From: Collodictyon triciliatum
Taxonomy: Eukaryota
Length of the DNA: 34,818 bases
NCBI GenBank assembly: GCA_043381765.1
Contig: JBHJMP010000892.1
Location: 1-34,818 of the forward strand
Direction of reading: 5' to 3'
The notes below the pieces were generated by a model, which saw only the letters and a list, made by a program, of their open reading frames with translations, was not told where the DNA came from and ran no database searches. Both the position numbers and the translations under genes were made by a program. Positions 6,729 through 34,818 of the stretch are shown here, in pieces. Within the stretch, counting starts at the first letter, position 1. Every line of letters begins with the position of its first letter.

Positions 6729-7901
6729 ATGCCACAACTGCATCCGGCTATTGAGCACAATGCGCCAAAAGTCCCGCTTGTTCTTGGCGGACTCTCGCTG
6801 ATCCTGGTGGTTGCAAGTCTGGGCGCCGATGTCTGGTCGACTTTGGACTGCCCAGCAACAGAACTGGACTTTGGGTGGCGCGAAGCGCGCGGGGATTTGG
6901 GATTTGAGTACTCTGTATGTGACGAACAGAACCTCTTCAACTGTAATGACGTGAAGAGCGGAGGACGCGCTGCCTTGGGACTCGGCGTGACAACCATCTT
7001 CATTCTGATTCCGGCCCTCATTTTCCACGCGAAGGCTCTCAAATCGGTGAGTCTGCTGATTTGTTTTGTTTGTTTTGTTTGTTTGTTTGTTTGTTTGTTT
7101 GTTTGTTTGTTTGTTTGTTTGTTTGTTTGTTTGTTTGTTTGTTTGTTTGTTTGTTTGTTTGTTTGTTTGTTTGTTTGTTTGTTTGTATATGGGTCTGAAT
7201 ATGTGTATGCGCCGGTTGTGGTGGCATAGCATCGCATAAGTCTGCTCCCATTCAATTTATTTATTTATTTATTTTTGCTGTATAAAGGATATGAGTATGT
7301 GATGAAAAATAAATAGTTATGAATGATTTATAATCCAAGAAAAGACCAAAAACAAAAAGATATGGGAAACAACACCATTCTTGATCATTGGCTGCTTGTT
7401 CTCAAAGTAAATTCTTATTTCGGTGGACTTTTCCAGAACACAAACCCGCCAAAGACTATCTCGGCCGGCTTGTTTATCCTTGCCAATGTCTTCATTCTGG
7501 CCTCTTTTGCTTCGTGGACCTCCAAGGGACATCAATCCATCCAGGACTTCACTGATGATGTAGGAATTATCACGTATTTCTTTCTCTGACCTGCTTGAAT
7601 GCCACTCGCACGACACAAAATACGGACGCTTTCTTAGATGGTGCACAAAAGTCTCCAACACTTTTATTATCAAAAGGGATTCGCTTAGATGCTGCTTCCT
7701 TTCCTTTCCTTCTTTCTTTTCATCACACTTCATCGATTTGCATGCCATGTAACGCTCTCTGGGTTGTAGATCGATGGCTGCGACGCCTCACTGGGAAGCA
7801 GCACCAATCTGATGATAGCCTCCTTTGTCTTTATGATTATCTCGTCTGTTCTCTCCATCGGCTTCTACCTGCGAGGCCACAACACCTACGGAGATGTCTA
7901 A
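6729..7901 (+). CDS. Claudin/PMP22-superfamily tetraspan membrane protein, 190 aa, 3 exons
   Basis: Exons 6729-7046, 7437-7559, 7770-7901 with phase-0 GT-AG introns. Four hydrophobic segments. The first loop has W...FGW...C...C (DVWSTL..DFGWRE..VC..NC), like the claudin W-GLW-C-C signature. Ends ...HNTYGDV*. Confidence 0.8.
7061..7185. repeat. (GTTT)n microsatellite in intron 1 of the tetraspan gene
   Basis: Directly visible; starts about 14 nt after the GTGAGT donor at 7047. Confidence 0.97.
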
Positions 7902-8273
7902 TGGCACTGAGAATTGGCCGATAGGACGAACCAGTTGCCGCTCTTGCGCAACCACATAAAATAAAAATATATGAAAGAAAGAAAGAAAGAAAAGCGTCCC
8001 TTCTTCTGGTAGTTACATAATTCTTGGCAGAGTAATACACGATAAAATCCAAACGAACAAAAAATAACAGAAAAAGACCAATAGAAACATTTGAACAAAA
8101 GAGAAAAGAAAAACAACAACAAATGAATGTCTTGTCTTTCAAAAATCAAATAAAAAAGGGCAAGAAAAGGGCTTTCATTGAGCAAGTAAGCTGAAGGCTC
8201 AAATCTGCTTCTTTTTTCCCCCTCTCTTACTTTTATAGTCTATAAAAGAAAGTCGCGCAAAACAGGAAACAGA

Positions 8274-8597
8274 ATGGACTCGCAGACAGTCGAGCAGGTG
8301 CAGCTGATGCGTGCCTTCCTCGAGCATTGTGGCGACGGAAACCTGGAGCAGCTGGAACGGATTCTCTCTGCATTCGAGCTGAAGCCCAACACTGCCTCTG
8401 ACACAAACGGCTCTGTAAGTACAGATACCGAAGCAAATAAACAAATAAACAAATAAACAAATAAACAAATAAACAAATAAACAAATAAACAAATAAACAA
8501 ATAAACAAATAAACAAATAAACAAATAAACAAATATACAAATATACAAACAAACAAACAAACAAATAAACAAATATACAAATAAACAAATATACAAA

Positions 8598-8672
<75 letters not shown>

Positions 8673-13417: not shown

Positions 13418-13444
13418 NNNNNNNNNNNNNNNNNNNNNNNNNNN

Positions 13445-13475
<31 letters not shown>

Positions 13476-15823
13476 CGCTTTTTGAAATTTTGTAATTTTT
13501 GTGAGAGTGAATCCATGAATGCATGCCCATTCGTAGGAGACTGCGCTGTAGCTTTTCCAGGATGGCTCTCTCGTTCACGATTCTCTGACACGCCTTCGCT
13601 GGCACATTTCTCAGCTTCAGCTGGCGGCACGTTTTTTTCAGGGGATTCAGAGGGATAAGGATTCTTTGGGAAGCAGTTGGTCGATAAATCACCCATGTTT
13701 TTAATTGGACCCGGTGTCATGGACATTTGGGCCCTTGAAAGCTATATATAATAGAAGTTTTAACCTAAATAACGTTATAGAAATAATGGAAAAAGGAAAT
13801 AAAAGAAACGAAGTGGTATCAAATGTCTATATTGCGAAGAATTCAATGGATTACAGTTTCCAATCTTTGAGCCTTCGCAGCAACTTTTTCAGACGCCAAA
13901 ATATCCGTAATTGCTGGTCTGGTATTCGGGTCTGCAACTAAATTGGTTGGTGGGGTCTTGTTAGAATCGTGTCAGTTCCTGTGCATTTGGGAAAGAAAAG
14001 CATAATGATTAAAAAAACTATCTGGGTGAAACCATCATTTCTCACCAAGCATCATCTCTATGACATCTGCTAAATCTTGCGAGTAAAAATCAGGTATTGG
14101 TGAATGGGTCCCCTCCAACACTTTCTTTCCCAGTGATTTATAATCTTGAGCATTGTATGGGTACGCAAACGCGGCCATTTCGTAGATTACACAGCCTATT
14201 TTTTTTTGAAGCAGTTATCATACCACAGAAGAAAACGAGGAACAAATAAAATAGCAATCGATTTATGTAAGCTTAGCATCGCTTTATATAGGCGCTATTT
14301 CGTAATCTGTGTTTACTTCTGCAGCCCATAAAATCATTAAACTTTTGAGCGGTATGATATGAATAAAACATCACCTAATGACCATATGTCTGTCTTGCAA
14401 TTGTAAGGAACCTGGCGCCATACTGGGTTTTATCATGTAAATGCTATTAATTCATAGTGTGTTGTTTGTTTGTCTTTAAAGTAAAAGTAAAGCACAAACA
14501 GAACAAACAAACAGAAAAAACAAACAAAATCACGGCATCAACATGATACTCTGCCATACTCTCAGGGCTTTGATAATAAGGAGTCCCGATCATCGTTTTG
14601 GTAAGCTCTGAGTCTAAAATCTTTGCCACGCCCTGTCAAAAAAATTTTTTTATTCCACTTAAAATAAAAATACTGACAGATATTCTACGAATTTTAGAGA
14701 GAAGAAGCGAGAGATTTTCTCCTCTTATGAATGTAACTATAATTCGGTGAGGTAATATGCGAAAACTGCACGAATGAGAAATTAAATACCAGGTCCCCAA
14801 TTTTAACGTATCTGTTGTCTGTAATGAATATATTCGAGCTTTTGATGTCCCTGTGAATTATGCCCATTTCGTGAAGACACCGAAGCCCAAAGCAGAGTTG
14901 TATGAGAACAGACCATATCAGTTCCTCAGAAAAATGTTTGGGAGTATCTTTCGACTTTTTCTTCTAAATAGATAACCAGTGTGTCTGTCAATAACCATTC
15001 ATTTAAAGGTTATGACATCTTTCATCTAGAAAAAATAATTCAAACTCTTGGCGAATAACCTAATCGACCCAAAAACAGGGAACAAATCAAAACCTTTATC
15101 AGAGCATGCAAGTCTCCCTTTTGGGCGTATTCCATGACCTTGGAGGCATTTTCAAAGTTTTTTTTTAAAAAAAATAAAAACAGTTATTAAACAAATTCAA
15201 AATAAAAATTATCACACTATAGTTTATATATTATTGTGCTTGAAAAGTGCATATGAAACATGTTTTTATATTATTGTTTACATTTTAAGTAGGTAATAAG
15301 ATAGGGATTCTCATACAATAAAGAGCTTGTGCTCCTCAACGAAAGCCTCATAATATGATATGATGCAAGGGTGATTCACAGCAGCCAAGACCCTTATCTC
15401 TTCAAGGGCTCTGCTCCTATATATTTAAAAAAATAAGTGGGATAAAACCAAACACAAAACTCATTTTTATTTTATGATTTCGTATTATACAGCTATATTT
15501 GCGGAGTTATCCAGGTCAATTCACCACCACAAACCTTTCGTCCTTATCCATTCTTGATAGATTGATAACCTTCATCGCATAACTAGAAATATACCCATAG
15601 ATTTTGGTGAACGAGGACAATATTTTTTTTGAAATAATCGAATTTTGATATAGATTGGTAAAACAAAATTAAAAGTTAAATAACAGTTTGGAGGCTCCAC
15701 CCGAGTTTGTGACAACACAAAAATTTACTTGCATTTGTCTTGAACCCGAATGACCTTGTAGACTGCTCCGAAACCACCTTTCCCCAGTAAATCTCGCACT
15801 CGGAAATCCTTTAGCCCGCCCAT
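12533..15823 (-). CDS. NIMA-related (NEK) Ser/Thr kinase, DLG-type (FA2/CNK2-like), about 12 exons
   Basis: Spliced translation: [128 protein letters not shown], then a low-complexity tail with a poly-Ser run ending KFGRA*. The junction across the TAA repeat and N gap (13150-13530) is uncertain. Confidence 0.92.
13381..13474. repeat. (ATT)n microsatellite containing an assembly gap (N at 13418-13444)
   Basis: Directly visible; the true array length is unknown. Confidence 0.95.
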
Positions 15824-16855: not shown

Positions 16856-18273
16856 TTAAACCAGCTCGGACAGAATCTTTGCGAACGAGGGCCGAGCACT
16901 CGGGTCATCGTCCCAGCACCGCTTCATCAGATCAACGAGCTTGGGATCTCCAGAGCGGGGCAGTGTCGGGCGCATTCCTTTGGCCACCTCCATGGTCAGA
17001 CGCAGCGGGTCGATGTTTGTGTACGGCCGCTGCCGGGTAAGCAGCTCCCACACCAGAATGGCATAGCTGTAAACATCAGCCTTCTCGTTGTATCGTGTGC
17101 CTTTCAATACCTGCGCATAAAAAACGACGTGGTGAATACGCGGTTGCATCCACATACAAAAAAAATGCCCCAGCCTGCGGAAGAAACATCACGCGGTGCT
17201 CGGAGTGGATGCAGCGATACTCAGTTTTTGTATCCGTATTGTTATTGTTGGTGTGTATCCACTGTTCTTGTAAAGAATGGATATTGTATTTGCACATGGA
17301 GATTGGTTGAATAAATGAGTACCTCTGGGGCGAGCCAAGCCTTTGTTCCGCACTTTGTCATGGTTTGGTTCTCTGCGCGAACGCGGGCAAGGCCGAAGTC
17401 GCAGAGCTTCACTTCCATCGGTTCCAAGGAGAAAATCTGTGGAAATGGGTGGGTGTGATTCAATCGGATTAATTAAGGAGGGAGTTGATGGTGATAATAG
17501 GCCATACAAGTATACACCAATAAATAAATAAAAAAAAATGACACATTTATTAAAGTAAGAGAGATGTCACCGAAGGAAATCGAATAAATTGGAAAGGTTT
17601 CAAGCGCATTACCAGAACATTAGGACTCTTCAAGTCGCGATGGCAGATGGGGGGTTGTCGAGTGTGCAGATACTCCATAGACTTTGCAACTTGAACCAGA
17701 ATTGTTCTTCTGATTGCGTCGTTGATGGCAAACTAAAACATAGTAATAAGTATGATTCACAATCATCGAGTTCACGATAACATATGTTTGACAGCTCGTG
17801 CCTCTTTGATAAAGACTTTAAGGCAAAATAAAAACCTTTTTATCCTCGATAAAGTTCTGCAAACTGCCGTGGGCTGCATACTCGAGAACGAAGCAGACAT
17901 TCGGCGCCTTCATATTGGCACCCACAAGCTTCAGGATATTTGGGTGGTCGAGGGTCCTGTATTAGACGCAAAAACATGAGCCATAGTCTAGACTTTATCA
18001 ATAGAAATATTCTTGGTTGGAGCAAAATAAACAATCTGTGGTATGATGTTTATCTTTCATTCGTTGTGTTATGGCATCTTTACTCACATCATCAGGCTGA
18101 TTTCGGATAAGAGGGAATACTGTTGTTTCTCGGGTATCTTTTGCTTTGAGAATTTCTTGATTGCAACTTCCTTGTCCTTGTAAGTTCCTTTGTAAACCGT
18201 GCCGAAGGAACCACTCCCAAGAACGACCTCTGATAATTTCAGCTTTTCCATTTCAAGGCTCCAAGTGAATTCC
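16856..18273 (-). other. Receptor kinase domain 2 (TKL)
   Basis: LGSGSFGTVYKG..VAIKKF, LDHPNIL, ICHRDLKSPNVL, KLCDFGLAR..TMTKCGTKAWLAPE, KADVYSYAILVWE, CWDDDPSARPSF. Confidence 0.95.
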
Positions 18274-21200
18274 TACAAGAAACCAAATGTGCTTAGGTAG
18301 ATGAAACAATTGTAGTTTTCTGTAAATCCACTAGAATGATACTTAATTAAATATTTGTGATTTGAGCTACCTGACGTTGTTGTTGTTGTTGCTGCTGCTG
18401 CTGACCGCTCTCATCGTTTGTGCTCACAATTGTCTGGAATATTGTTGAAGACTCTCCCGATTTCTTAAAGTACTCTGACCTCTCCCCCAAAGATGCAGGT
18501 GTAAGCTATACGCGTTTTTTTATTGGGCTAAATTTCTTGATATATTTGTATAATATTATACAGTTTGTTTCTTCGTCCTCTCTTTTTCATTAAACATAAT
18601 AAAGAAATAAAGTACGATTAAAAAATGGTGCATTCATCATACTTCAAAGAGATGGTCAACTGCTGTCATTCCCTTCAACATGTGCTCTCCCAAATCGTGA
18701 ACCAATGGACTTCCAAGTTCGTGAAGATGATTTCTTATTTCCTTTTGATAGAAAAAAAAAAAAACAAGACCGCATCATAGAGCAATTAAGTCATGTAAGT
18801 TATGTTAAATTCTATGAATTTTTATTGTTGTCTCCTTTTTAATTATTTTTTAACAAAAAAAAAAAGCTGAAGAAAGTAGCAAATGATGTAAAATGATATG
18901 CAAAATTCACTCCTAGACAAAAACGAAAAGGTATTGCGAGTCATTTACCTCGTAAGTCGGTTCGCTGATTGCAATCTGGCCACCAGCTGGAAAGGCTCCA
19001 ATTCTGTTTGCTCTGTTCACGGACTGTCCAAAGTAATCCATTCTCCCTGTCACAGCGTCTTCACGAGTCATCGGTTCGCACCAATGAACTCCCTTTAAAA
19101 ATAAAAAAATTCAGTGCCTATATAAAGTTTCTGTTTATAAATTAAATAAAGTAACATGCAGTCAAATAAAAAAATAAGCTATTAAATATTATAAAACAGA
19201 ATTCATGATTCAATACGACTGAGAATCCAGACCATACGAACGCGAAGTCCTCTGAAAAGGATTTTTTGGTCTACGCTCTCAATTGCTGTGGCCTTATGGG
19301 TGTAGATTTCAGAGGGCCATTCTGCCGTCAAGAGTAGTTCTTGAGCTCGCAGACAGAATTTCAAGGCATTCTTTGAAGATGTAAACGCAATGACGAACGC
19401 GTCGCCCTCCGTTCGGACTTCATAACCCTGTTTTGAGATGTAAACAAAGCTGAAATTTCAATACTAGAGAAAGTATGATATTAATAATATCGTTCAAATA
19501 ATACCCCCACAAAAAATGTATGATTCAAATTGTATGACCAATTATCATTAATAAAGAGTTAGATGCGAACTACCAGAGATAAATAAGATTTAAGATGACA
19601 TAAATACAATAATCAATTGATTAGTGGACAAACCTCAGTTGTTTTGATGCAACCTCGCATGATTTCGTTGTGAATGTGAAGTGCTGTCGCCATTTGCTCG
19701 TGGTATTTCTCCCACAACGCTGTTGAGCTCTGGACATCGGTAAAAACGAGCGCAACTTGACCTTTCGGCCCAGTGACCTTCTTTCGACCATTATCGGAGG
19801 AGCTTCTCATACTCGCAGTCATACTTCCACCCATGCTGAACGATAAACTGGAGCTCTTTTCGTCCAACGTTGTGCAAATTCTCTTTAAAATAGTTGAAAA
19901 GGTTGGCCTCTTTTCCATGTCCGAGTCCCAGCAGTTTTCCATCAGAGCTCGTATCTCTGATGGCATGATATCTTCCGGCGGTATATCAGGGCGCATACCG
20001 TTCTCAGCCACTCTCAAAGCAACAGATTCAGCAATTTCCTCTCCCTGAAATAGATTGAGGTTACCGATATCTGTATTGAAGTAAACTCTTGCAAAGAGAA
20101 AGGTGTTATTGATTGATTGTGCGCTTTTTTTAAGACATGATTCATCGAATGTGATTAGAAGATATAATTAAGTGGGTTACCTCGTTTTCGAATAAAGGAA
20201 AAAAAAAAGTGGGTTACCTCGTATGGGTCCATTCGCGTAAAGACTTCCCACATTATTATGGCGTAACTGTAAATGTCAGCCTTCTCCGTATATTTTTCGC
20301 CAAGAATAACCTCTGGCGCCATCCAAAGCAATGTTCCAGGAGGTTCATCAGAGGAGCTCTTTTTATCTTGAGACCCAGTTAGACCAAAGTCGCTAATGTT
20401 TACAAAGCATCTCGTATCAGTAAGTTTACACAGTCCTTGACATTATATGGGAATATGACTGGGGTTTATATCAATTTAGAAATTGGTTTACCTGATTTTA
20501 ACGTTCATTTTCTCGTCGAGCTATTTATTTATTTATTTATTACATTAAAAGCTAGCGTAATTAAGATGAACAAATGAATGGGTAAATGACGCCTTTCAAT
20601 ATATTTTTGAATCAGAGGAAAATGGAATTGAGCCTTAATCGAATCGAATATGACTTACCAAGAGATTAGGACTCTTCAAATCACGATGCAGAATCGGAGG
20701 GTTAGATAAATGTAAATATTGCAGACCTGCCGACAAAAAAAAAATAAGTATTTTTAATTGAGATATAAGGAGGAGCATAATTTCATTTTATATTTTTGTT
20801 TATACAATTATGGATGGTACTTCATAATGCTTAACTTATACTTGATGCGTTCATGTATTTTTTCAATAGAAAAAAAACCTTTTGCAGCGTCAGTGAGAAT
20901 TGACATTTTCATATGTACGTCGATAGGCAACGTTTCATCGTGCAAAACCTAAGATACATTGTGAATAGGTTAACCTTGTTTGATGCAGCAATTACAATTC
21001 TCATCTTTAGTTGTCATATGTATTTTGCAATCGAAGTTGAATTGGAGACTATATATGAAAGTAATTTTGTTTACAAAGGTAGTTTACATCATGTAAGCTG
21101 CCTCGCATCATGAGCTCAGATATAATGCATAGACGTTTGGGCTCCATACAGGCAGCCATATAAAGAACGACATTAGGGTGGCGAAGTTGTCTACCAATAT

Positions 21201-24200
21201 GTAACGAAAAAAAAATCAGCATATATTTGCTAATGAATTTTAATGTATTTACATAACAATAGATGATAAATCGCCTCCAAAAGAAAAGGATTTCCTTGAA
21301 TTTGATAACTTACACCATAACAGCGACCTCATCTTGGAATGCCTGTATTGATTTTTTTGTAATATTCTTTGCGCTGATTCTCTTTATAGCAACATCAGCT
21401 CCTCTCCAGAAACCAGCATAAACCTGGCCATTGGGATAAATGATTAATTTTTGAAGCATCTATTAGATGATATCTGAAGAAAAATAGAGTGGTTAGTTTG
21501 TAAGTTAAAAGTAACCTCGCCAAAGCTCCCAGCGCCCAGCAACCGCCCAAACTGCAAGTCTTCGTACTTGACATGTACGAACAACTGATCCTCTCGGGCC
21601 TTCATCTTCTTCATTTGGTCCCGGTAAAGAAGGCCTCCGATTACTACGAGAATGATAACAAACGCACTCGCGCCCCCAGCTATCCCACCAATAATGGCTG
21701 AGCTCAACTCATCTGAAATGAAGTGCTTAGTATATGAACTGGGTGGCTATTTCTATGCACAAACCACATCGAATGAAATAATGCACTTTCAAAATTCAAA
21801 TCAATTCGTTTAGCGGTGTATATTTTAAAGGCATTGAGTTCATAAAGTATATAAGCGAGGATGAAACACTCACTGCTTTCGTGGACATACTGACTACAGA
21901 TAGGCTTTTATTATTAAAAAATGCATTAATTAGTTGAAGTGAAAACTCGAATGCACAACATAATTTTATTAATGCTGAAAGATACATAAATAAATGTTGA
22001 AAAGGTACTGCGTCATTTGCTTGCTTGCATTTTTTGCACTCATTTGTCTTTTCATTTTCATAGTAACTTGCTGGGCATGTGCATTCTCCATCAACTATCG
22101 AGGAACTTGTCGGGCAATCTGTCCAAAAATGTAACCATGTGAATTTAGCTAATATTTATCTCATTGCAGCTTAGTTTTCTGCAAACAGCGAGAATAAATC
22201 TATAAATGTAAAAACGCTGTACTGAAGTATGTGACATTAAATCCCTGGCCGCGGTGGTTACTGCTAATATCAACCGAACTTTTTAGCTCCAGCGAAAGCG
22301 AATTATCCGCAGAGTAGAAAACTCCAAGGATTTCGCCTTTCAACTCCTCTGTTTTCGATTTTCCATCACTAGTTGACTTGTACGAGATGTAAAGCCTAAT
22401 GTTTTCGCAACATGTAAATGATATTTAGCACAGTGGTTACGACTAAAATTTTGTTTTCAAATTAAAAGAATCATATAGTAATAATAAGCTAGCAACATAA
22501 TCGTATACGTACATATCCCCTGCTGCGAGGCTGCCTCTGATGATGAAAGAGTTGGCATCCTTAATCATATATTTGCAATGGGTCCCACCGGGATATTCTC
22601 CCAAGCCACTTCCATCCTCGAGCAAGCTTCCTGTCCTTAATCCATGTACCGTTTTGGTATTTTTTGCATTGCAGAGACCTTTTTTTTTAAAAAATAAAAA
22701 AAATTAAAAATTAAATAAGCACTTGGTATATGTATATATAAAGGACCAATTTGACAATTAATTTATGCATCCTTTAATTACATAGATATGTGATTGAAAC
22801 TATCAGGCCAAATATCTTACTCGGCTTGTATAGGAATCCATAGGTACTGGAAAAGTAATCTGTACTCCCTCCATATATTATCAACCCGTCATCTGTTGCT
22901 ATTGAAGCATGACCACTTAACTTTGGGAGAGGAGCATCATCGCCATCTGGGTCCAACTGAATCCACGTTGATGTACCTTAGCAGGTAGTAAGCTCATTAA
23001 CGTTACTTTCGATGAAAAGTGGAAATCAAACGAAAAAATGGTTATTATCACCATGATTGTAGTTTGTATGATGTATAAAAATATATCATATCCGAGAGAG
23101 GAGGAAGAGTAAGAGTAAGAGTAAGAGTAAGAGTAAGAGTAAGAGTAAGAGTAAGAGTAAGAGTAAGAGTAAGAGTAAGAGTAAGAGTAAGAGTAAGAGT
23201 AAGAGTAAGAGCATTAAATGTAAGCACACCTATTTGATATATCCAAGTCTCATTGACACGAACTCCCTTAGCACTTATTCCTCCATAGACAACGAAGCTG
23301 TCTCCAAAGACACCGAAGCCCGCCTGATAAAGTTTGGGCCCATCTATGGTCACGCCTTGTAATTTTGTCCAAGAGTTCTCCACTGGATACAAAGGTCTCA
23401 TGATTAGTGATGGCATTAGCTGTGGGGATAAAGGATGGTAAGTGTCTCATCTCCCATGGAAAAATGAGAAAAAATGCATATGTATATTACCCATTCAACT
23501 TACAGTTATCGTAGAACCAGACATCTCCAAGGTTTCGGTTCTTGAAATCACGACCTCCATATACAACAAACCCATTCAAATACTTTCCATACGCAAATCC
23601 TGTTCGGGCAATCTATGCACCAAGAAAAAGATATTTGGTATAAGAAATGGCAAAAAGTATTTAAAAAAAAACAGTTTTCGTCATTAACGGATCGTCCATG
23701 TAACCACAAACTTACAGGCCCTTTATTTGTAGGAGCTATGGAACTTATTGATTCGTCTTCAAAGTCGATTTTATAAACACTGGTATAATCTTCATACACT
23801 CCCGTGCGGACAGTGAGCTTATTGTGACAATTAGGTTTCAAATATAGCTTTCAATACATAGCCAATATATTATGAAACATGAGCATTCCTCTCATGGATT
23901 CATTGGTATGGTCTTTCTTATAATCGACTTACATAGCCTCCCCAAAGATATGCCGTTGAGTCCTCCATAATCATAGAGAATCCTTCCTTTTCTAAAATGT
24001 GTTGACCCAAACCAAGGCTGGATGAAAAACTGACGGACATCCATGATGCGGCTATTAGAAATGAAATGATAATGAGTACTGAATTGAGAAGTATCCTCAT
24101 ATATTTATAGGGAATAAGTAAAAGGAGAATTTCATTTGGTTGCGTATCTATTATTAGCATACTTTTCTGTTTGCCATTCAGCACATTTGTCATATCAGCC

Positions 24201-27200
24201 GTCCAAAGTAATCCATCACTGAATCCGTCTCCACTGTCTCCACCAAACACATAAATCTTATTATTGTAGAATGTAATCATAGCATTGCTTCTGGGAGATG
24301 GAGCTTCAAGGCTTGCGTCGTAGTTAATAAGCATCGTCCATCGATTATTTCCTTAATTAATCGAGCAGTTTTTTTTAATAATAAAAAACTTCAAAATTTA
24401 TTGTCTACATTTAATAAAGATGAACGAGGATTATCATTAAATGGGGAAGCTAAACGTAGGAGGATACCTTTGTCAAAATACCACAAATCGTTGGACAATT
24501 GCTCCTGGTGGAGTTGGACATACCCGCCAAACACTACGTATCCCCCAGGCACGTTTGTAACGGCCGAGTTGCGTCTACCAAGTGGTTCGTTCAAACTTGA
24601 TGAGGAGACCCAGTTCTTCTCATCTGTAGCGATAGTAAGTTGCATTTTTTATTTTTTCTTTCAATTTGTGCAAGATGATGGGGGTGTTGACTTTGGCAAT
24701 AGTAGATTGCATACTTGAGAAGTGAAAAAAACTGCTCATGGAACATTTCTAGTCAATATAACCAATTAACAACACTCTCACCCATGTCTAAGCCCCACAT
24801 CCAGTTAACGTATCCTGCACTGTCCTGTGTAGAGCCTCCAAACATAACCAGTCTATTTCCCAAAATCGCTAGTGTGGAATACTGAAGAGGCGGTGGAGCA
24901 TTTAAAGGTAAAATGTTCGTAGTGGGATTGACAATGCGATGCTCCAGACTCAAATCATCTGATTGTGGATGGAGCAATTAGGTTTTTTTTAAAAAAAAAA
25001 AAATGATAAAATTGAAATGACTCATTTCATAACCTAATGATATATCGATTTCGACTGCTTTCTATATGTAATTCACTGATAAACCACCGAAAAATGCGTA
25101 TAATTATTTTCTTTCATTATATGGTAGTTATATTGTAATTAACTTAATTAATAGAGTTTTTCTACTTGGGATTACCTTTTGAGATAACTACGAGGTCTCT
25201 TAAATTTTTCTCCTTGGAATATCCTCCAAAGATATATATTTCTCCGTTGTACTCTACTGTTTGAATGTTTTGGCGAACTGCTTGGCACTTCTGGGGATTA
25301 GCCGTACATCCCAAGCACGGATTATTTGATAAAGCAGAAGCTGGTGTCCACTTGGAAGATTCTATAATATTGTTAGATATATAGACCTTTGAAGAAAAAA
25401 GCAATAAGAGAACAGAAAAAAAAGCATCATGAAGAAATTTCGAAAAGAAAAAAAAAAGACACTTACTGATATCAAATATGTATACGTCGGAGAGTTCTTG
25501 GATTCCATTGTAGCCGGCGAATAGGATTAGCTTTTTATTTGTAATCCATGAGGCATGGAATGCAAGTGGTGGTGACATGGTTTCGCTCGAAGTGGTCCAC
25601 TTATCGGTCGCTGAAAAGTTATTTAAGACCAGTTAGTTGTAGTTGGCTTGGTGTTTATTGACTGATTGTGAAACAAAAAGAGTAAATCCTTTCATAAAAT
25701 GCCAATAATTGACAAAATTGGGTAAAGTATCCTTTTTTTTAAAAAAAAATATCCTGCTCAGTTTTACACTCCCACTCACCAATATTGTAAATATTCATAG
25801 TGGACAATACGTTCCCTTGAGACTATGAAGATAGAATAGAATTTTATGCTTCACTCCAAATGGCATATATGAACGATTATCTTATGAGGAAAACGAAAAA
25901 AATTATTACGTCCATTCCACCGTGAATGTAAACGTCTTGGCCATCATATGCGCAACTGTGTCCATATCGGTTCAGAGGATATCCAGACAATTTCTTCCAC
26001 TCATACGTGTTTGAATTGAAAGTGTATGTGTGTGTATGATTTACAGAAGGGGCAAGTCCACCAACATAGTATATCAAATCCCCTTTGTTTAAGAGGCACA
26101 CACTTTGGCGACTCGGTGGGAGGATTCCGGTAGCCCTGATTCTGCTCCAAGACAATGTATCTATAATTTTTCAGAAAATAGACCAAAATATATACTTGTA
26201 AAGAATGATTTATGACACAGGCATACTGTTGATAATATGATTGGATTACAGTGGACTAGTTTTGGAAAAAAAATTAGACAAAAGGCTTTTTTAGCCCTTG
26301 TATTTAATTGAAAAAAAAACCTGCGCTGGTCACTTTGAATGTAGACACAGGAGTATATTGCGACTCATCCTTGCTCTCGTCTTGGTAGAGGCAGAATATG
26401 TAAATATTCTGGCCATCACTAACAGAGCGTGGGTACTTGCACGTTGGCATAGAATCAGAGTAAAGTCCCCAATCTCCATTTTCGACTAACAATAGGAAAT
26501 CGTATGTTAAACATTAAGAAAGAAAAATAAATAATAATAAAAAAAGACCGGGGTATCGAAATGTCAAAGACCTGATAAATCCGTGGTGGTTGGTGGGTTC
26601 TTGGCAATACAATAATCCTACAATTCCAATTTTAAGACTTTGAAAAATATGTATGATTTTTTCTCTCGGGTGGATGAGGTGTTCTTTTTTTTTTTAAAAA
26701 AAAAAACTCTTGTCTTTATTATAAAAATTATTTGTACCTTATTCTTTTCTGGCTGATTATAACCACTCGGGCAAGGGTAGCATTGCCCTCCGATGGTAAT
26801 GTAGTTATTTGCAGGACATTCACAGACTCCGCTAGAGCTCATAAAACCGTACTCACATCCTTTTGTTTTTCAACGGGCATTTAGCAAAATTTCGGTTTCC
26901 TTCTCTATTACAAGTAGATGAAAATGTACATAATGTAAGAATTTTTTTTAAAAAAAAAGTTACTGATCAAGTCAAAAGTGAATCCAGGCAAGTTGGTTAA
27001 CTTTGGGCCCGTTGTAAATCTAATTTGGAATTCTCCTCCTGGTATACTAACTCTAGTTCCTTGAGCGTATTCATGAATTGTTGTCTGGTATTTTGATTAT
27101 CTCTTAAATAAAAAACGAGGTATTTATCCATATAGTATTTAAAATAAAGATGAAGTCCAAATAAAAATGAAAAAATGAAGATATTATTTTTCCTAGATTC

Positions 27201-30200
27201 GACAGAAGTCCAAGAAAACCTAGCCATGTGATGTACGAGTAAAAAAAGTAGGATAGCATATTGAAATTTGCGTACTTCTCCTTCAAAAGTTGATTGTCCG
27301 TTAATGACAATTTTTCTATCGGCACATTGAGATGGAGTTGTGATTGTTATACGTGCATCTTCATCCAACTGAATCATCTTCATCTATTGATGCTCGAAAA
27401 ATTAACTTGCCAACTCATAAAATTACTAGTGATATGTAATTATTTCAATCATATGGCTATTGCTTTACTCACGATGAAGTTGTTCGCTCCAGTTATAGCC
27501 CAGGTGCAGTCGGTGTAAGCCATATATGTGAAATCTCCACTTTGGTCAGTAACAACTTTTTGTCCCTTATTGTAGTCGATATAATTGGTTCCGGAGCAAA
27601 ATGATTTACCTGAAAAAAGGTATTTCAAAACAAGTACATATCACATGTATTGAGAGAAATAAAAAGGAAATTCAGGCACAATATTTCTTAAAAAAAAAAA
27701 ACAATAATGAATATGAACACCAGAAGAACAAGACCCCTTTTATGATTACCAATATCGTATCCAAGAACACGTGAATCATAAGTCGAATAAACGTTAGGCT
27801 GGGCAAGTAATATATAATTCTTCAACACTATAGAATTGCTAGATGAAATTGGAGCTGGTCGCTCGGGTGCTGGTGCCTGTTTTCCCCATTGCTCGTGGTC
27901 TAGTGGATATTTGGTTTTGAAGCTTATGAGAATATGCAAGGTGTATTGATGTCATTTTTTCTCTTCATTCGAAAAAAAAAAAAAAAGAAGACTCAAAACA
28001 TGAATGATTTATTTAAGCTGTTTAATTCCAACTCACAGAAATCAAAGAACCATATATCATTGGTGAATCCGCCGTATTTGTCATTGCCTCCAACAAGAGC
28101 GCCCATCCCCACATTGACCATATTGCTCGATTCGATTCCTTGTTGATTGCCTTCAGACCCAATAGCTCGGTAAAATGATGTCGTGACTGATATTAATGTG
28201 TTATTTAATTATTGTGATAGAAATTCCAGAAGATTCATGTAAGGAGTAAATGAGTATGATCTATGTTGAAAATAAAAAGGAGCTCTCTTTTCTTGAATGA
28301 CGTACCAGGGTTGAAGCAATTAATGTCTGGTAAAATCGTGCTTGACCCGTACACTGTTCCTCCTTGAATGCAAAATTTATCATTTCGCACGAATCCTTTC
28401 GCTCCGACTCGCAGAAGAGATGAATCAGGTAATTCATAGTCAGAAACCGTCAAGCTCTCCAAATCCAAGACGTATAGATAGTCTTCCATCATATTTGTGT
28501 AGTAATAGTAGTATGTGGTGAAATCATGGAGGAAGCCTCCAGTGATGTAAAGTGATGACCCAATAACACCATAAGAGGGGCTCCTCAAGAGACCAAGAAA
28601 TTCGTATCCACTAGGAAGATTGATGTATGTCCACGTCCGAGTTGCTGATTATTGATAATATAAAAAGTAAGACAGTATTGAGTAAGTTGAGATAATAATA
28701 TGGATATCATTTTTCCTAAGAGTTCGTTTGTGTAAATGACGGCAATGTGTGAAGACGAGGGGTATAATACGTCTGAATTTACCAATATCAAACTTGAAGC
28801 TCACAGCAACACCAATTCTTATATCTGAAAGTCCTCCAAATATGTATGCCGTGTCATTGAAAACCCCCATATACTGTAAAGAAATATTTAAAAACAAGGA
28901 TCAAATTAAAATTCGAAACTTTGCTGACGCAAGCTTATTTTGGATGAATTACTCACCGGATCGTACAGTCCTGACGGAAAGTCTGTATATGCATAAGGAT
29001 CTGCTAGTGTCAAAGGGAATAGATTCGTCCATTTGCGAGTGTCTATAGTCATGAAAATTTAATGATAGGTGAATTCGTTCGAAGGAACCTGTCAGATATA
29101 TATGTAAATATTCTCATTTTGTTTTCGTTAGGTCTCATTTTCAATAAAAAAAAAAAAAAAAAAAAAAAAAAATTACATATAAAAAAAAAAAAAAAATATT
29201 TTAAAAAAAAAAAAAAAAAAAAAAGGAACTTACCTATGTTGAACTCCCATAGGTCATTTAAGAACATAGTCCTGACACATCCGTTGTATCCTCCAAACAT
29301 TAGGAAGGTCGATTCACTACTTTTCCCAAGGGCTTGGCGGGCTCTTCCCATGGGACGAGCGTCGAAAGACTTCCGTGGAAACGTTCTTGAAGCTGTTTTT
29401 TTTTTAGGTGCATTTTTTTTAAAAAAAGAAGCTATACCCTTTTCTGTCTCGTCAAAAATCGATTACGTAGTAGCAAGGCGATATGCAACATGTAAAGAAT
29501 TAAAATTACTCGTATCAAATATCCAAATGGTATCATCTGTGCATCTAAACTGCCCGAATGAATAAACAACATCTTTTCCGACAGAAGTCGCTGATGCATA
29601 AAGTCTTGGCTTTGGATATTGAGAGTCATACGGGTACGCTCCAATCATGTTTCTGTAATTGACCATGTAAACGATTTCCTTTTCGTCTAAAAAGGACAAT
29701 TTTTGTGATAAATGTTTCAAACAGAAATATGGTGTCATCCAAGATGCAGTATTTTGCCCATTGAAAGAAAGAGATTCAAATTGTCAAAAGATAATAGTAG
29801 TAACATGGTGTATACCTAAGTCCAATATGTATAGGATGGGGTCTGCAGAGGACGATGTGTCGTACATCGTCCCACTTATGATGATCAATTCAGATCCGAC
29901 GAGGGCTTTGGCAGAGAGACTTGAAGAAACCTTAACACCGGGATAAGGAAACGAGACACTGTTTTTTGACCAAGTCGAAGTAGCTGCAAGCAACATGATC
30001 AGTGAGGCTTGATTACTTGAAGACGTTACCAGATGCATTAGTTAGTCTACAATATAGAGTTAGCGAGGAGGAAAAACTCACTGAAATTAAATATCCACAA
30101 ATCTGTCATCATGATTCCACGAGAACCACCGTAAATGTAGAGCTGGTCATTGTAAAAGGCATATGCAGGAGTGTCAAGTGCAGGTGCAGTCTGTTGGTTA

Positions 30201-31606
30201 TATTCTACCTCGCTCCATTCATATGTTTCTAATCGATTAAATATATTCCAAGTGTTGTTTTAATCTTAAGATTTTTTTTCTGCACATCGCAAACTTTTTT
30301 TTTCCTTTATTCGATTCAAAGTGTAGCGAGATTATGCCTGCACATCGCAAACTTAAAAAAAAAAAAAAAGAAATCGAATTGATGAAATATTGTTCTTAAT
30401 AGTAAATATATTGTGGTAGGAAGCGGGTGATGAAGAAAACACTTTTTTTAAAAAAAAAAATACCCAGGTTGAATGTCCACATATCGGGTAGAAGCCCGGT
30501 TTCAGCTAGCCCGCCGGTAACGTAGGCTATTCCATTTCTAGTAAAACATATGGGAAATCGCCGACCATCAGGAATAGAGTCACTTGGAGAATAGAGTGTC
30601 TCCCATGTCATAGTCGACATGTCCAGAATGTGCATGTCATTCATGTAGACATCAGAAAGGCCTCCAAATAGTATTATCTAATAAGCGATCAGATGAGCTA
30701 TCCACTTGGAGTGTGGTGGAAGGTGGCAAATGAAAAAGCAAATAAATCTTGAAGTAAACCATTTGAACTAAATATGAAACTATGTAGAACGAGAATCATT
30801 CATCATACGAGACGAAAACGAAGGAACAATGATAATTGAGCCTTGTTTGTATGGACTGGATATAACTAAGGGTAAATACCTTATCAGCAACAACTGCAGT
30901 GCAAAAATCATCGCGTACAGTAGGCGCTGGTCCGTAGGTGAAGACCACGCGTGATTCAAAGCTCTCTATATGTTTGATGGGTTTTTTTGTTATGTGCTAG
31001 TGTCTCATGACACATAACTCAAAGGTAAGAAAATATTATTCTGATATGCGTAGGTGCGCGAATACAAAAGATTTCGAAGAAGGCGGTAATGATAACGAAA
31101 AGCCCACCCAAGTCATCCATGATGTAGATGTGATCAACATAACGAACAGGGGCGTCCCAATCGTTTCCAAAACTTTGACAGAAAGAATGAAATGAGGAGC
31201 CTTTTATATAGACGCAACATTCAAAAAATGCCTCAAAATATTTTTTATCTAAAAAAAGAAACGAAATGAAATGAAAACCTCTCAGGAAAGAAAATGACGG
31301 AGTTGTTAAAGGTGACACTCGTGTGTGTTGTGAACGCTTGGGGGTACTCATTGATCATATTCCACGTGTTCACTTCTCCTCCGCGGTAAGCCAACGACTC
31401 TGCATCACGAAATCATATTAAATAGACTAAACAAATTATATAGATAATATAAATAATGAAATGAAAAATAATTGCACCAATATAAACGTATTGAAGTAAA
31501 ACAAATATATTAGTGCAAACAAATGTATACCTCCGGCAAGTAAAATGAGGAGCCCCAACAAAACGAAGCGCAGCACAACCAGAAAGGACGTATTGTTTCC
31601 TTTCAT
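16856..31606 (-). CDS. Giant single-pass receptor: SP-[Kelch x12-CUB-Cys-rich]x2-TM-TKL kinase-class III cyclase-TKL kinase (about 53 exons, roughly 2,500 aa by estimate)
   Basis: Signal peptide MKGNNTSFLVVLRFVLLGLLILLAG (ATG at 31606). I could join GT-AG exons continuously in phase to TAA at 16856-16858. TM segment AIIGGIAGGASAFVIILVVIGGLLY. Domain evidence is listed in the sub-features. Confidence 0.9.
18643..19775 (-). other. Class III nucleotidyl cyclase domain (fungal CYR1/trypanosome/amoebozoan type)
   Basis: VALVFTDVQSSTALWE, GYEVRTEGDAFVIAF, FRGLRVRMGVHW, RMDYFGQSVNRANRI..GGQIAIS, DLGEHMLKG. Confidence 0.95.
19860..21570 (-). other. Receptor kinase domain 1 (TKL/Raf-like)
   Basis: LGAGSFGEVYAGFWRGADVAIK, FQDEV, LRHPNVV, ILHRDLKSPNLL, KISDFGL, GTLLWMAPE, KADIYSYAIIMWE, CWDSDMEKRPTF. 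Confidence 0.95.
21874..22678 (-). other. Receptor ectodomain: CUB-like domain 2 plus Cys-rich stalk
   Basis: LCNAK..LLEDGSGLGEYPGGTHCKYMI...SLSLELKSS..RGQGFNVTYF, then CPTSSSIVDGECTCPASYYENEKTNECKKC..PICSQY. Confidence 0.75.
22821..26487 (-). other. Receptor ectodomain: Kelch block 2 (12 blades)
   Basis: Examples: RYGHSCAYDGQDVYIHGGMD, IYIFGGYSKEKNLRD, LVMFGGSTQD, YVVFGGY..SNDLWYFD, PSPRSNAMITFYNNKIYVFGG, FVVYGGRDFKNRNLGDVWFYD, LSGHASIATDDGLIIYGG. Confidence 0.88.
23105..23210. repeat. (AAGAGT)n hexamer microsatellite in a receptor intron
   Basis: Directly visible; it produces the spurious LTLTLT run in the ORF track. Confidence 0.97.
26571..27610 (-). other. Receptor ectodomain: CUB-like domain 1 plus Cys-rich (ephrin-receptor-like/GCC) repeat
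   Basis: FCSGTN..VVTDQSGDFTYMAYTDCTWAI...FQIRFTTGPKLTNLPGFTFD, then CEYGFMSSSGVCECPANNYITIGGQCYPCPSGYNQPEKNKDYC. Confidence 0.72.
27750..31400 (-). other. Receptor ectodomain: Kelch block 1 (12 blades)
   Basis: Repeated P..R...hydrophobic-GG...D-L/M-W-x-F-N/D...W units, e.g. IILFGGLSDVYMNDMHILD, AYVTGGLAETGLLPDMWTFN, LYIYGGSRGIMMTDLWIFN, FLMFGGYNGCVRTMFLNDLWEFN. Blades 1, 5, 6 and 12 are divergent. Confidence 0.85.
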
Positions 31607-33182: not shown

Positions 33183-34397
33183 CTATGACTTTGGGAGATT
33201 CCCGATTGCGCTCACTTTGTGGATTGTAATGAAATCGTCCCATCCAGAGATGATTGTGATTTTCAGATAACGAGCAACAAGGCCAGTAATCTGTGATTTT
33301 TTTGTCATTGTATTGATAAAGTTAATTTTTGACTTTTTATGTCCCTTTTCCTTGTATAGTTTATACTTGAACTTTGAATCAAATGAAGGGGAATATTCTT
33401 AAATAATACCAAAATAAAGATGCTCCTACTCATATACATACTCATACTAATCATTATGACCATAATAGTTGTTTAAAACAAAAAGAAAAATGGATTACCT
33501 CCCTCACTTTGGATTGTAGCTTTCCGGGTGTTTGAGGATACTCTGTAAACCAATTTTATCAAAAATATAAAAAATTACGTAGCAAAGAGTCTTGCGCATT
33601 TTCCTTGTGTGAAATACGATGTGAATCTATAAAATCCGTTTCAAATATACTAACCGTCCATATATACTTTCTCGAAGCTTTGAGGTTGGTTGGCTTCACA
33701 CTTTTGTATGTAAATCTGGCGAACTAGGCAATAGGATCGACAATAAGATTTAGAGTCTCCTTATACATCATCTTCCTGGTTATGAATATTTTTCGAGGGA
33801 ATTATCATCACAGAGATAATAAAAGATTGTGTATTCTTGGCAAATTAATGTGTTTTTCCTCCATATTATTATATTCAAACATTATCGATAAGACGTTCGT
33901 ACTGTTCGCACAGACTATCTTTAAAGACGATATATGAACCGTGGTCCCGAATGCAACTACAATCTCTTGAGGAAACATCCCAGTAGTGGACCAGAAAGTC
34001 TTTGTGTTCCTGGAATTCCAGTGGATAAATCCAATTCACATACCAAAATAAAAAATTTTTTATCAAAGTGAAGTTATGTTTTCAGGTATGCGGAGTGTCT
34101 TCATAAAAGAAGGAAAAGAAGGAAAAGAAGGAAAAGAAGAAATAGAAGAAATAGAAGAAATAGAAGAAATAGAAGAAAAAGAAGGAAAAGAAGAAAAAGA
34201 AGGAAAAGAAGAAAAAGAAGGAAAAGAAGAAAAAGAAGAAAAAGAAGAAAAAGAAGAAAAAGAAGAAAAAGAAGAAAAAGAAGAAAAAGAAGAAAAGAAA
34301 CAAACGGATCGAGAATGTTCTCTGGAGGATTTTGCTCGTCCAGGGAAGTGGCCATGAGAATAGTTGTTCCATTCGACTCGAGTGCAAGATCGGTCAT
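33183..34397 (-). CDS. IFT25: Intraflagellar transport protein 25 (HSPB11), 139 aa, 5 exons
   Basis: Exons 34397-34306, 34009-33903, 33723-33655, 33542-33499, 33290-33183 total 420 nt. Translation MTDLALESNGTTILMATSLDEQNPPENILDPNTKTFWSTTGMFPQEIVVAF...ARYLKITIISGWDDFITIHKVSAIG matches the IFT25/HSPB11 hallmarks ATS.DE..PPENI.D...TFW.TTGMFPQE. Confidence 0.96.
34107..34299. repeat. Compound 9-mer purine array (GAAGGAAAA/GAAGAAATA/GAAGAAAAA) in IFT25 intron 1
   Basis: Directly visible; abuts the donor at 34305 on the minus strand. Confidence 0.95.
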
Positions 34398-34450
34398 TCT
34401 TTTATGGTGCGGCTCAGAAAACAACTCCTTAGTCTACTGCAACTTTCGAT

Positions 34451-34553
34451 ATGACTTGCAGTGGAGTGTACAACAGATTAGTTACAGCAAAACGTCAGGA
34501 AACCCAGCGTGTTATGAGAAGCAGATCATCAGAATATTTGGGAAGGGAACAGA
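34451..34553 (+). CDS. Possible first exon of a gene divergent from IFT25 (MTCSGVYNRLVTAKRQETQRVMRSRSSEYLGREQ..)
   Basis: ATG-initiated, coding-like stretch ending at a GTAAAC donor-like site and immediately followed by a microsatellite. No recognisable homology. Confidence 0.3.
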
Positions 34554-34559
34554 GTAAAC

Positions 34560-34602
34560 TTGTTGTTGTTTATGTTGTTGTTTATGTTGTTGTTGTTGTT
34601 TA

Positions 34603-34655
<53 letters not shown>

Positions 34656-34722
34656 TTGTTTATGTTGTTTATGTTGTTTATGTTGTTTATGTTGTTTATG
34701 TTGTTTATGTTGTTGTTGTTTA

Positions 34723-34783
<61 letters not shown>

Positions 34784-34785
34784 GC
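34560..34785. repeat. Compound (GTT)n/(GTTGTTTAT)n microsatellite
   Basis: Directly visible. Confidence 0.97.
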
Positions 34786-34818
34786 TATAACCCTGCGATA
34801 AAGTGTTATTCACCTGAT

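Follow-up and report, generated by a model that had tools for sequence, protein, structure and literature searches.

Probable ancient duplication of a Kelch, CUB-like and Cys-rich module within a predicted giant receptor gene of Collodictyon triciliatum

The window analyzed here, a stretch of 34,818 nt from Collodictyon triciliatum (contig JBHJMP010000892.1), carries on its minus strand what is predicted to be a single gene of 53 exons encoding approximately 2498 residues. The ectodomain of the predicted product consists of two blocks, and we consider it highly probable that a whole module was duplicated anciently, most likely in tandem, as a unit bounded by phase-1 introns. The ancient tandem duplication of a whole module that the first-pass annotation had proposed was supported by the collinearity of the blocks, a positional signal among their blades, the agreement of blade lengths, the pairing of the CUB-like and Cys-rich parts, and the shared gaps in the intron pattern. 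As in an internal module duplication, the blocks are adjacent collinear segments with equal domain order, and in the splice model they also share features of gene structure.

Gene model and predicted domain architecture

The exon structure is purely computational and was obtained with a dynamic-programming splice model that was blind to the claims of the first-pass annotation. In the final model, all 52 introns are GT-AG introns with sizes of 83 to 253 nt, and read-through was blocked in 34 of the 36 ectodomain introns because each of these contains a stop or a frameshift. The blind model gave the same ectodomain limits as the first reading, with the first blade exon starting from 31399 and the last ectodomain exon extending to 21874. 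The start codon was our own choice, and exons that the blind model had placed further upstream were left out as unlikely; the signal peptide call corresponds to a hydrophobic N-terminus seen in the translation. Alternatives were present at three junctions (acceptor 30007 or 29983, boundary 4'/5', and boundary 10'/11'), which were settled partly by blade regularity; all of them retain the boundary intron, and the phase or a few residues alone differ. The possible 28-nt mini exon could be bypassed through a weaker donor within the block 1 Cys-rich exon that splices directly, and the possible 31-nt mini exon through a single intron running to the acceptor at 21746. For block 2, the acceptor at 26485, in phase 1, was the sole one available. 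A comparison of the 52 introns with each other revealed no introner-like similarity beyond short low-complexity matches.

The predicted chain runs from the signal peptide through the two ectodomain blocks and one membrane helix to a kinase, a class III cyclase, and another kinase (Table 1). Guanylate_cyc (PF00211) scored 26.0 bits on one exon (cut-off 21.9) and 16.6 bits on another, and two exons of kinase 1 were corrected by hand in the model. The Pfam order gives the layout of a cyclase kinase receptor, with a membrane helix, kinase, class III cyclase and kinase on what is modeled as one chain, and the intracellular module probably falls among the known 'cyclase kinase' receptors. The kinase-cyclase-kinase part may signal via a cyclic nucleotide and phosphorylation, and the doubled ectodomain may provide two ligand-binding units on one receptor chain.

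Table 1. Features of the predicted receptor gene, in positions of the window
Feature	Position	Strand	Basis
First coding exon: start codon and signal peptide, ending on a phase-1 donor	31531..31606	-	Splice model
Block 1 Kelch array: degenerate blade 1 and blades 2-12, 13 exons	27750..31399	-	Pfam Kelch matches, blade profile, exon model
Exon across blade boundary 2/3, block 1	30464..30677	-	Unbroken frame; Kelch_4 35.9 bits vs cut-off 21.6
Exon across blade boundary 9/10, block 1	28306..28644	-	Unbroken frame; two blade-profile matches within
Block 1 CUB-like part, 3 exons, 122 residues	26964..27609	-	Local alignment to block 2 counterpart
Block 1 Cys-rich exon	26738..26859	-	Cysteine spacing equal to block 2 exon; local alignment
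Possible mini exon, 28 nt, linking blocks 1 and 2, model-dependent	26572..26599	-	Blind model
Block 2 Kelch array: degenerate blade 1' and blades 2'-12', 13 exons	22821..26485	-	Pfam Kelch matches, blade profile (11 blades), exon model
Exon across blade boundary 2'/3', block 2	25910..26160	-	Unbroken frame; Kelch_3 32.2 bits vs cut-off 22
Exon across blade boundary 9'/10', block 2	23716..23817	-	Unbroken frame; exon model
Block 2 CUB-like part, 2 exons, 113 residues	22223..22678	-	Local alignment; language-model look-alikes
Block 2 Cys-rich exon	22009..22118	-	Cysteine spacing; local alignment
Possible mini exon, 31 nt, ahead of the membrane-helix exon, model-dependent	21874..21904	-	Blind model
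Exon with single membrane helix and start of kinase 1	21516..21712	-	Translation, hydrophobic helix
Kinase 1, several exons, approximate limits	19880..21516	-	Pfam PK_Tyr_Ser-Thr and Pkinase matches
Class III nucleotidyl cyclase domain, approximate limits	18643..19780	-	Guanylate_cyc PF00211
Kinase 2 and stop codon	16856..18272	-	Pfam kinase matches up to 69.6 bits; model

Similarity between the two ectodomain blocks

Each block contains 11 clear Kelch blades preceded by one degenerate blade-length segment, and the Kelch array is followed in the model by a CUB-like part, a Cys-rich exon and possibly a mini exon. At least one Kelch-type match at E 0.1 or better was obtained in 16 of the 21 ectodomain reading-frame pieces scanned, with single-exon scores of 35.9 bits for Kelch_4 (cut-off 21.6), 32.2 for Kelch_3 (22), and 34.0 for Kelch_1 (20.1); three further scanned pieces without any match were located in the CUB-like and Cys-rich parts. 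A blade profile made for this gene recovered 22 units, which form tandem arrays of approximately 50-residue repeats as expected for Kelch. The profile, which was built from blades 2-12, matched the first blade of block 1 only weakly (i-E 0.036) and failed to detect that of block 2. No additional Kelch blades were found elsewhere in the window among 884 reading-frame pieces outside the ectodomain of this gene. Closed Kelch beta-propellers have six or seven blades per ring. A 6+6 sub-duplication within each block was not indicated, as the shift-6 sums were not elevated and the scores showed no 6+6 periodicity.

The description of each half as 12 blades, a CUB-like domain and a Cys-rich repeat was retained in its order and modified in its content: the blades are 11 clear ones plus one degenerate one, and the CUB label has no Pfam or PDB match on exon fragments. 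The absence of the GG motif from blade 1, also noted at first reading, was borne out in both blocks; since GG is also missing from blades 5, 6, and 12 of block 1 and from blade 4 of block 2, this feature carries little weight.

A BLASTP comparison of the two blocks gave one collinear match (residues 67-812 vs 61-789, 789 columns, 21.7% identity, E 2.8e-19) that extends through the Kelch, CUB-like and Cys-rich parts. In a global alignment of the Kelch arrays, 148 of the 601 aligned pairs were identical (24.6%). Summed over same-position pairs, the 12 x 12 blade score matrix gave 255, compared with 113.8 ± 39.9 for permuted pairings, and this sum was reached by 122 of 200,000 permutations (31, 42, and 892 of 200,000 with three other gap settings). 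Register 0 ranked first among the 12 cyclic registers of the matrix in all four gap settings, and when block 2 was rotated without regard to blade boundaries, register 0 scored 199-211 and the next best register 157. The comparison of the blocks, akin to the self-alignment that had been suggested as a check, yielded a single collinear match, with register 0 best in both the rotation and the permutation tests. Blade lengths were also correlated by position (r 0.79), a value reached in 77 of 20,000 permutations.

At the level of single blades, only blades 7 and 9 topped both their row and their column in the score matrix, blade 4 topped its column alone, and the first blades of the two blocks showed no mutual similarity. 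When local alignment z-scores were used, the diagonal was matched by 5869 of 200,000 permutations. The expectation that blade n of one block would pair with blade n of the other in a tree was not borne out: in a tree of 24 blades and 53 columns, 1 of the 12 same-position pairs came out as sisters, without support, and none of the 21 inner branches was well supported. The blockwise clustering that would have spoken against a duplication was not seen either in this poorly supported tree, and being unresolved, it is no help for or against duplication. At the DNA level, blastn between the blocks gave only short matches of 37 nt or less at E 0.005 or worse, in agreement with the earlier statement that no DNA similarity is evident.

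The accessory parts also correspond in pairs. The two CUB-like parts aligned locally with a score of 48, against 26.3 ± 4.5 in shuffles, and none of 2000 shuffles scored as high; the two Cys-rich exons have equal cysteine spacing, and their local score was reached in 1 of 2000 shuffles. Pfam, including CUB (PF00431), gave no matches on the five single exons of the CUB-like parts (among 9 pieces, E up to 10), and a two-sequence profile of the N-terminal halves of these parts gave no PDB match at E up to 10; because the domain is split by introns, these tests were confined to fragments. Among the language-model look-alikes of the second CUB-like exon of block 2, 28 of the 30 matches were CUB clusters (best 0.94, 171-175 shared features), and those of the first exon were weaker (best 0.88); both serve as leads only.

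Intron pattern and origin of the doubled module

The blind splice model reproduced the claim that introns lie at 10 of the 12 blade ends in each block, the predicted exceptions being boundaries 2/3 and 9/10 in both. The four stretches quoted for these boundaries in the first-pass annotation lie in unbroken minus-strand frames (30399-30677, 25880-26170, 28238-28648, and 23551-23850), so that neither boundary requires an intron in either block, and frames and model agree on this point. With 2 of the 11 inner boundary introns missing in each block, the chance that both blocks miss the same two is 1/55; taken alone, this coincidence corresponds to approximately p 0.02 and was spotted post hoc. Phase-1 introns account for 25 of the 36 ectodomain introns, compared with 1 of the 16 intracellular ones. 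Both blocks open on a phase-1 acceptor (31399 and 26485), and each closes in the blind model on a short exon with a phase-1 donor, as required by a tandem duplication that keeps the reading frame. The intron between the CUB-like and Cys-rich parts is likewise predicted to be in phase 1 and one residue ahead of the first cysteine in both blocks. Nine introns are copy specific; all are in phase 0 or 2, and each lies at a different place within the blades or the CUB-like part.

In the ancestral module, eleven Kelch blades would have stood behind a first blade that was degenerate, and they would have been followed by a CUB-like domain, a Cys-rich knot, and probably a short exon serving as linker. 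Its array may have arisen by amplification of a blade-sized exon with phase-1 ends, and boundaries 2/3 and 9/10 would have lost their introns or never had them. The entire module of approximately 18 exons would then have been duplicated within the gene; the break points would have fallen in a phase-1 intron after the signal-peptide exon and in another after the module, which would have kept the reading frame intact. The copies would subsequently have diverged to approximately 22-25% protein identity, with loss of DNA similarity and with nine copy-specific introns making them different. What the analysis shows is the modeled exon structure, the collinear similarity, the positional signal and the shared intron gaps; the tandem mechanism, the order of events and the proposed function are inferences.

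An unlikely alternative course, with the same outcome, is a tandem duplication of the whole gene followed by fusion, in which the membrane and signaling part was lost from the upstream copy and the signal peptide from the downstream one. Such a course is compatible with the same similarity and intron data, and the strong amplification of such receptor families in other protists, as described in the relevant parts of two reports (PMC4053784, PMC4758236), makes tandem paralogues plausible. However, it needs more events, the 253 nt between the block 1 Cys-rich exon and the first exon of block 2 hold no remnant of a helix, kinase or signal peptide, and the boundaries coincide precisely with phase-1 introns, which is the prediction of a simple intragenic duplication. 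The same short gap bears on the view that the gene model is an artefact and that blocks 1 and 2 are separate genes or transcripts, so that the duplication would not be internal. The link between the blocks does depend on the 28-nt mini exon or a weak donor, but the gap is 253 nt, no start codon or signal peptide occurs in frame upstream of the first exon of block 2, its sole acceptor is in phase 1 and frame-compatible with block 1, and block 1 would otherwise be without an anchor or a proper end. We therefore regard an artefact as very unlikely.

It is very improbable that the blocks grew independently, by amplification of blade exons beside a shuffled CUB-like/Cys-rich cassette, with the equal blade number and the intron gaps arising by coincidence. 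The boundary introns all share blade position and phase, which blade-by-blade amplification alone would be expected to give, and the lack of position pairs in the blade tree and the weak signal at the single-blade level are in line with it. Independent growth is nevertheless disfavored by register 0 being the top of 12 registers in every test, by the position-wise correlation of blade lengths, by the degenerate blade that opens both blocks, by the introns absent at the same two boundaries (1/55), and by the identical domain order. Given a duplication of the module within the gene, we suggest tentatively, and with some doubt, that intron turnover is recorded in the two copies with an internal calibration: the 25 phase-1 ectodomain introns would have been inherited from the blade-exon array and through the duplication, and the nine copy-specific introns would have been gained afterwards.

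Significance and comparison with known systems

Growth of a giant protist receptor gene by internal duplication, as proposed here, would be neat but not unusual, and neither the duplication nor the receptor layout nor the intron pattern overturns current views. It illustrates how a large receptor ectodomain may be assembled, from phase-matched blade-sized exons and then by a copy of the array together with two accessory domains, and how gene structure can preserve the history of a duplication past the loss of DNA similarity. The nine copy-specific introns allow gain and loss of introns to be weighed against each other on a small scale, as in a natural experiment; if they are gains, this gene would be a rare example, and one that can be dated, of introns being gained repeatedly in a protist lineage that has been little studied.

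Neither an orthologue nor a single-module paralogue was found in our protein and metagenome contig searches. A phmmer search with the 112-residue exon 28307-28642 against 1.84 billion representatives gave no matches at E 0.001 or better, and word-based searches among longer proteins with this exon and exon 25910-26158 gave no relative. With the kinase-cyclase junction exon, no protein of 241-2000 residues reached E 1e-5 in the word-based search, a blank that is weak evidence. Among metagenome contigs, exon 25910-26158 had 543 pattern matches, none of which was confirmed. A literature search for Kelch-ectodomain cyclase receptors, or for such an intron argument in Kelch genes, found nothing specific.

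MEGF8 resembles a doubled attractin-type module. Attractin and MEGF8 are described in the parts of the literature used here as animal single-pass membrane proteins with an extracellular Kelch propeller, CUB and Cys-rich modules (PMC3776557, PMC10778434), and the present gene likewise joins Kelch, CUB-like and Cys-rich modules on a single-pass protein. The Attractin/LZTR1 propeller model matched its exons weakly (up to 30.5 bits, under the Pfam cut-off of 50). The order of modules differs: in this gene the Kelch array comes before the CUB-like part, whereas in Attractin and MEGF8 CUB and EGF precede the propeller and PSI, C-type lectin and laminin-EGF lie behind it. None of these last three domains gave a match on the exons scanned here, and the order of that family was not observed. 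The cytoplasmic part also differs, being kinase-cyclase-kinase here and a short tail in Attractin and MEGF8.

Kelch-repeat ectodomains are listed for 4 of 36 Chlorophyta receptor-like kinases in the relevant section of one survey (PMC12757656), and these combine Kelch outside with a kinase inside, as in this gene; unlike it, they are mentioned there without a cyclase, a CUB-like part or a doubled module. Exon-intron structure has been used as a mark of homology after similarity fades, according to the summary of a preprint (bioRxiv 10.1101/2021.09.24.461719); that argument runs between the genes of a family, whereas here it runs between the halves of one gene whose protein similarity is still detectable. 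The closest parallels to the intracellular part are the 'cyclase kinases' or receptor nucleotidyl cyclases, for which the relevant passages give 66-67 genes in Acanthamoeba castellanii and 43 in Physarum polycephalum (PMC4053784, PMC4758236). The Pfam order described there is common to those receptors and this gene, and their ectodomains are left unnamed in those passages, in contrast to the doubled Kelch/CUB-like/Cys-rich module found here. With the present gene, a Kelch/CUB-like ectodomain joins those of the kinase-cyclase-kinase receptors, whose descriptions have hitherto come mainly from Acanthamoeba and Physarum.

Gene model and layout of the window

The receptor gene lies in AT-rich surroundings (GC about 0.30-0.49), and its minus strand carries an extended run of short open frames with Kelch-type matches, followed further downstream by kinase and cyclase matches. 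Exons were modeled computationally by dynamic programming, with a splice finder that used a codon log-odds model and allowed GT-AG introns of 35-700 nt. Its splice-site weights were retrained in four rounds, and it was blind to the claim of the first-pass annotation that the ectodomain is an internal duplication with the same two blade boundaries lacking introns in both halves. In the hand-corrected (curated) model, acceptor 29983 replaces 30007, junctions 25467/25361 and 23504/23382 replace 25486/25386 and 23491/23396, two kinase-1 exons are lengthened, one doubtful exon is removed, and the frame is closed at stop 16856. This model predicts 53 exons, 2498 residues, and 52 introns, all GT-AG and 83-253 nt long. 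The longest intron (253 nt), between blades 11' and 12' (primes denote block 2), is taken up in good part by a GAGTAA hexanucleotide microsatellite (23101-23211, 18.5 copies, 99% matches). The class III cyclase was matched on one exon (PF00211, 26.0 bits; cut-off 21.9). The 3' end of the receptor gene (16856) and the phosphodiesterase gene lie ~11 kb apart.

Features of the receptor gene and its neighborhood
Feature	Position	Strand	Basis
Signal peptide	31606-31531	-	Splice model
Block 1	31399-26572	-	Splice model
Block 2	26485-21874	-	Splice model
Membrane helix (one)	exon 21712-21516	-	Splice model
Intracellular order: kinase, class III cyclase, second kinase		-	Pfam matches
Multi-exon gene, hydrophobic N-terminal exons, cyclic-nucleotide phosphodiesterase catalytic domain	~2100-5500	+	PDEase_I 57.5 and 38.7 bits, two exons
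Ankyrin-repeat gene	~8900-10400	+	Ank_2 56.7 bits
Exon of a further protein kinase	14697-14963	-	Pkinase 47 bits
Assembly gap (27 N) within a trinucleotide run	13418-13444		
Further long simple repeats	6900-7250, 8200-9000, 34100-34818		Visible as repetitive translations

Blades and boundary introns

The blades match Kelch models of Pfam. A profile built from blades 2-12 recovered 22 blades and, weakly, blade 1 of block 1 (i-E 0.036), whereas blade 1 of block 2 was not found with this profile. Each block is therefore better described as a degenerate blade-length segment followed by eleven clear blades than as the twelve blades proposed previously. The reported absence of a GG motif from blade 1 of both blocks is real but not distinctive, because four other blades also lack it.

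The four peptides quoted in the first-pass annotation for boundaries 2/3 and 9/10 all sit within unbroken frames, so these boundaries are intron-free in both blocks under any model. The blind model placed introns at all ten remaining blade ends per block, in agreement with the earlier count. Among the 36 ectodomain introns, 34 cannot be read through, and the two that can (25486-25386 of the blind model and 24163-24051) match the remainder in AT-richness. The boundary introns were in phase 1 in 10/10 cases in block 1 and 8/10 in block 2 in the blind model, and in 20/20 after curation, lying four residues (once three) ahead of the blade's tryptophan position, where present. Three curated junctions were picked partly for their fit to this phase and position regularity (the two in block 2 also have stronger donors), and the all-phase-1 pattern is therefore not independent evidence.

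Two short repeats were also observed. One is a 17-nt direct repeat (30280-30296 and 30338-30354) in the block 1 intron that separates blades 3 and 4. Its copies bracket an insert of ~41 nt, which on the gene strand closes with a short motif and an A run and resembles a very small retro-insertion flanked by a target-site duplication. In the other, within 20171-20222, a repeat of ~15 nt doubles the end of a kinase-1 exon (20218) together with its splice donor; the ~22-nt insert between the copies carries the same motif and A run in the opposite orientation, and the curated model takes the upstream donor copy.

Origin of the two halves

Compared with block 2 by BLASTP, block 1 gave a single collinear match (789 columns, 21.7% identity, E 2.8e-19) covering blade 2 through the Cys-rich exon, with a second match shifted by one blade (E 1.8e-8). 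At the DNA level, blastn between the blocks yielded chance-level matches only, as the first reading had suggested by eye. Because all blades are mutually related, the real question is the register. When all blades of one block were scored globally against all blades of the other (12 x 12 matrix), pairs at the same position summed to 255, whereas permuted pairings gave 113.8 ± 39.9. The observed sum was reached in 122 of 200,000 permutations (31, 42, and 892 of 200,000 under the other three gap settings), and register 0, with blade n opposite blade n', topped all 12 cyclic registers under every setting. With shuffle-normalized scores from an earlier model, the diagonal was reached by 258 (global) and 5869 (local) of 200,000 permutations. 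A rotation test without blade boundaries gave 199-211 for register 0 and at most 157 for other registers. Furthermore, blade lengths were correlated by position (r 0.79, reached by 77/20,000 permutations), blades 5, 6, 8, and 9 being long in both blocks. The CUB-like parts aligned at the same offset (score reached by 0/2000 shuffles), and the Cys-rich exons had their cysteine spacing in common (1/2000).

Some results count against a duplication, as individual blades followed position less closely. Only blades 7 and 9 were reciprocal best matches between blocks, and the expected pairing of n with n' did not appear in the blade tree, which contained one unsupported same-position sister pair and no well-supported branch among 21. 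Clustering by block was not seen either (8 label changes versus 8.4 for shuffled labels).

The boundary introns occur at an identical spot in every blade and therefore speak for blade-by-blade exon amplification rather than for the copying of a block. More telling are the shared exceptions, first the same two intron-less boundaries (chance 1/55) and the phase-1 acceptor that opens both blocks. In addition, a phase-1 intron precedes the first CUB-like cysteine by three to four residues in both blocks, and another precedes the first cysteine of the Cys-rich exon by one residue. At both block ends, the blind model predicts a phase-0 intron, an exon of 28 or 31 nt, and a phase-1 donor; these mini exons are uncertain, and simpler splice alternatives exist. 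Nine introns are copy specific (five in block 1, four in block 2; seven in phase 0, two in phase 2), none at matching positions, and a sequence comparison of the gene's 52 introns revealed only short low-complexity matches, with no mutual similarity among these nine. Phase-1 introns make up 25/36 in the ectodomain (21874-31399) versus 1/16 in the intracellular part (16856-21712), where 12/16 are in phase 0.

The collinear match, the register tests, the blade lengths, the likeness of the CUB-like and Cys-rich parts, and the shared intron gaps support the proposal that the halves arose by an ancient duplication of the whole module, which we consider probable. That the duplication was tandem, and in what order the steps followed, we infer; in a tandem duplication, the break points would have lain in the introns behind the signal peptide and behind the module, a course that would require exactly the phase match seen in the model. 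The main rival, in which two tandem paralogues were fused into one gene, appears improbable.

Relatives and comparison with known receptors

A phmmer search with the 112-residue exon 28307-28642 against 1.84 billion representatives returned no relative at E ≤0.001. Word-based searches among longer proteins with this exon, exon 25910-26158, and the kinase-cyclase exon found no relative, and metagenome contigs scanned with exon 25910-26158 gave no confirmed one. Calibration of when the duplication took place, or of which way the introns changed, is therefore not possible. The CUB-like label is tentative: exon fragments had no CUB match in Pfam or with a PDB profile, but language-model look-alikes of the second CUB-like exon of block 2 belonged to CUB clusters in 28/30 cases (best 0.94), and the other such exon of block 2 reached 0.88, each as a lead only.

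The kind of event and the receptor family are already known, and the ectodomain is undescribed. The intracellular part fits the 'cyclase kinases'. According to PMC4053784, the Acanthamoeba genome encodes 67 nucleotidyl cyclases that combine an extracellular domain and a single helix with a cyclase placed between two kinases; PMC4758236 counts 43 such genes in Physarum and 66 in Acanthamoeba. Receptor kinases with Kelch ectodomains are reported from green algae in PMC12757656. In animals, CUB, EGF-like, and Kelch parts occur together in attractin and MEGF8 (PMC3776557, PMC10778434), but the domain order differs here, and the propeller-model matches of this gene fall under the cut-off.
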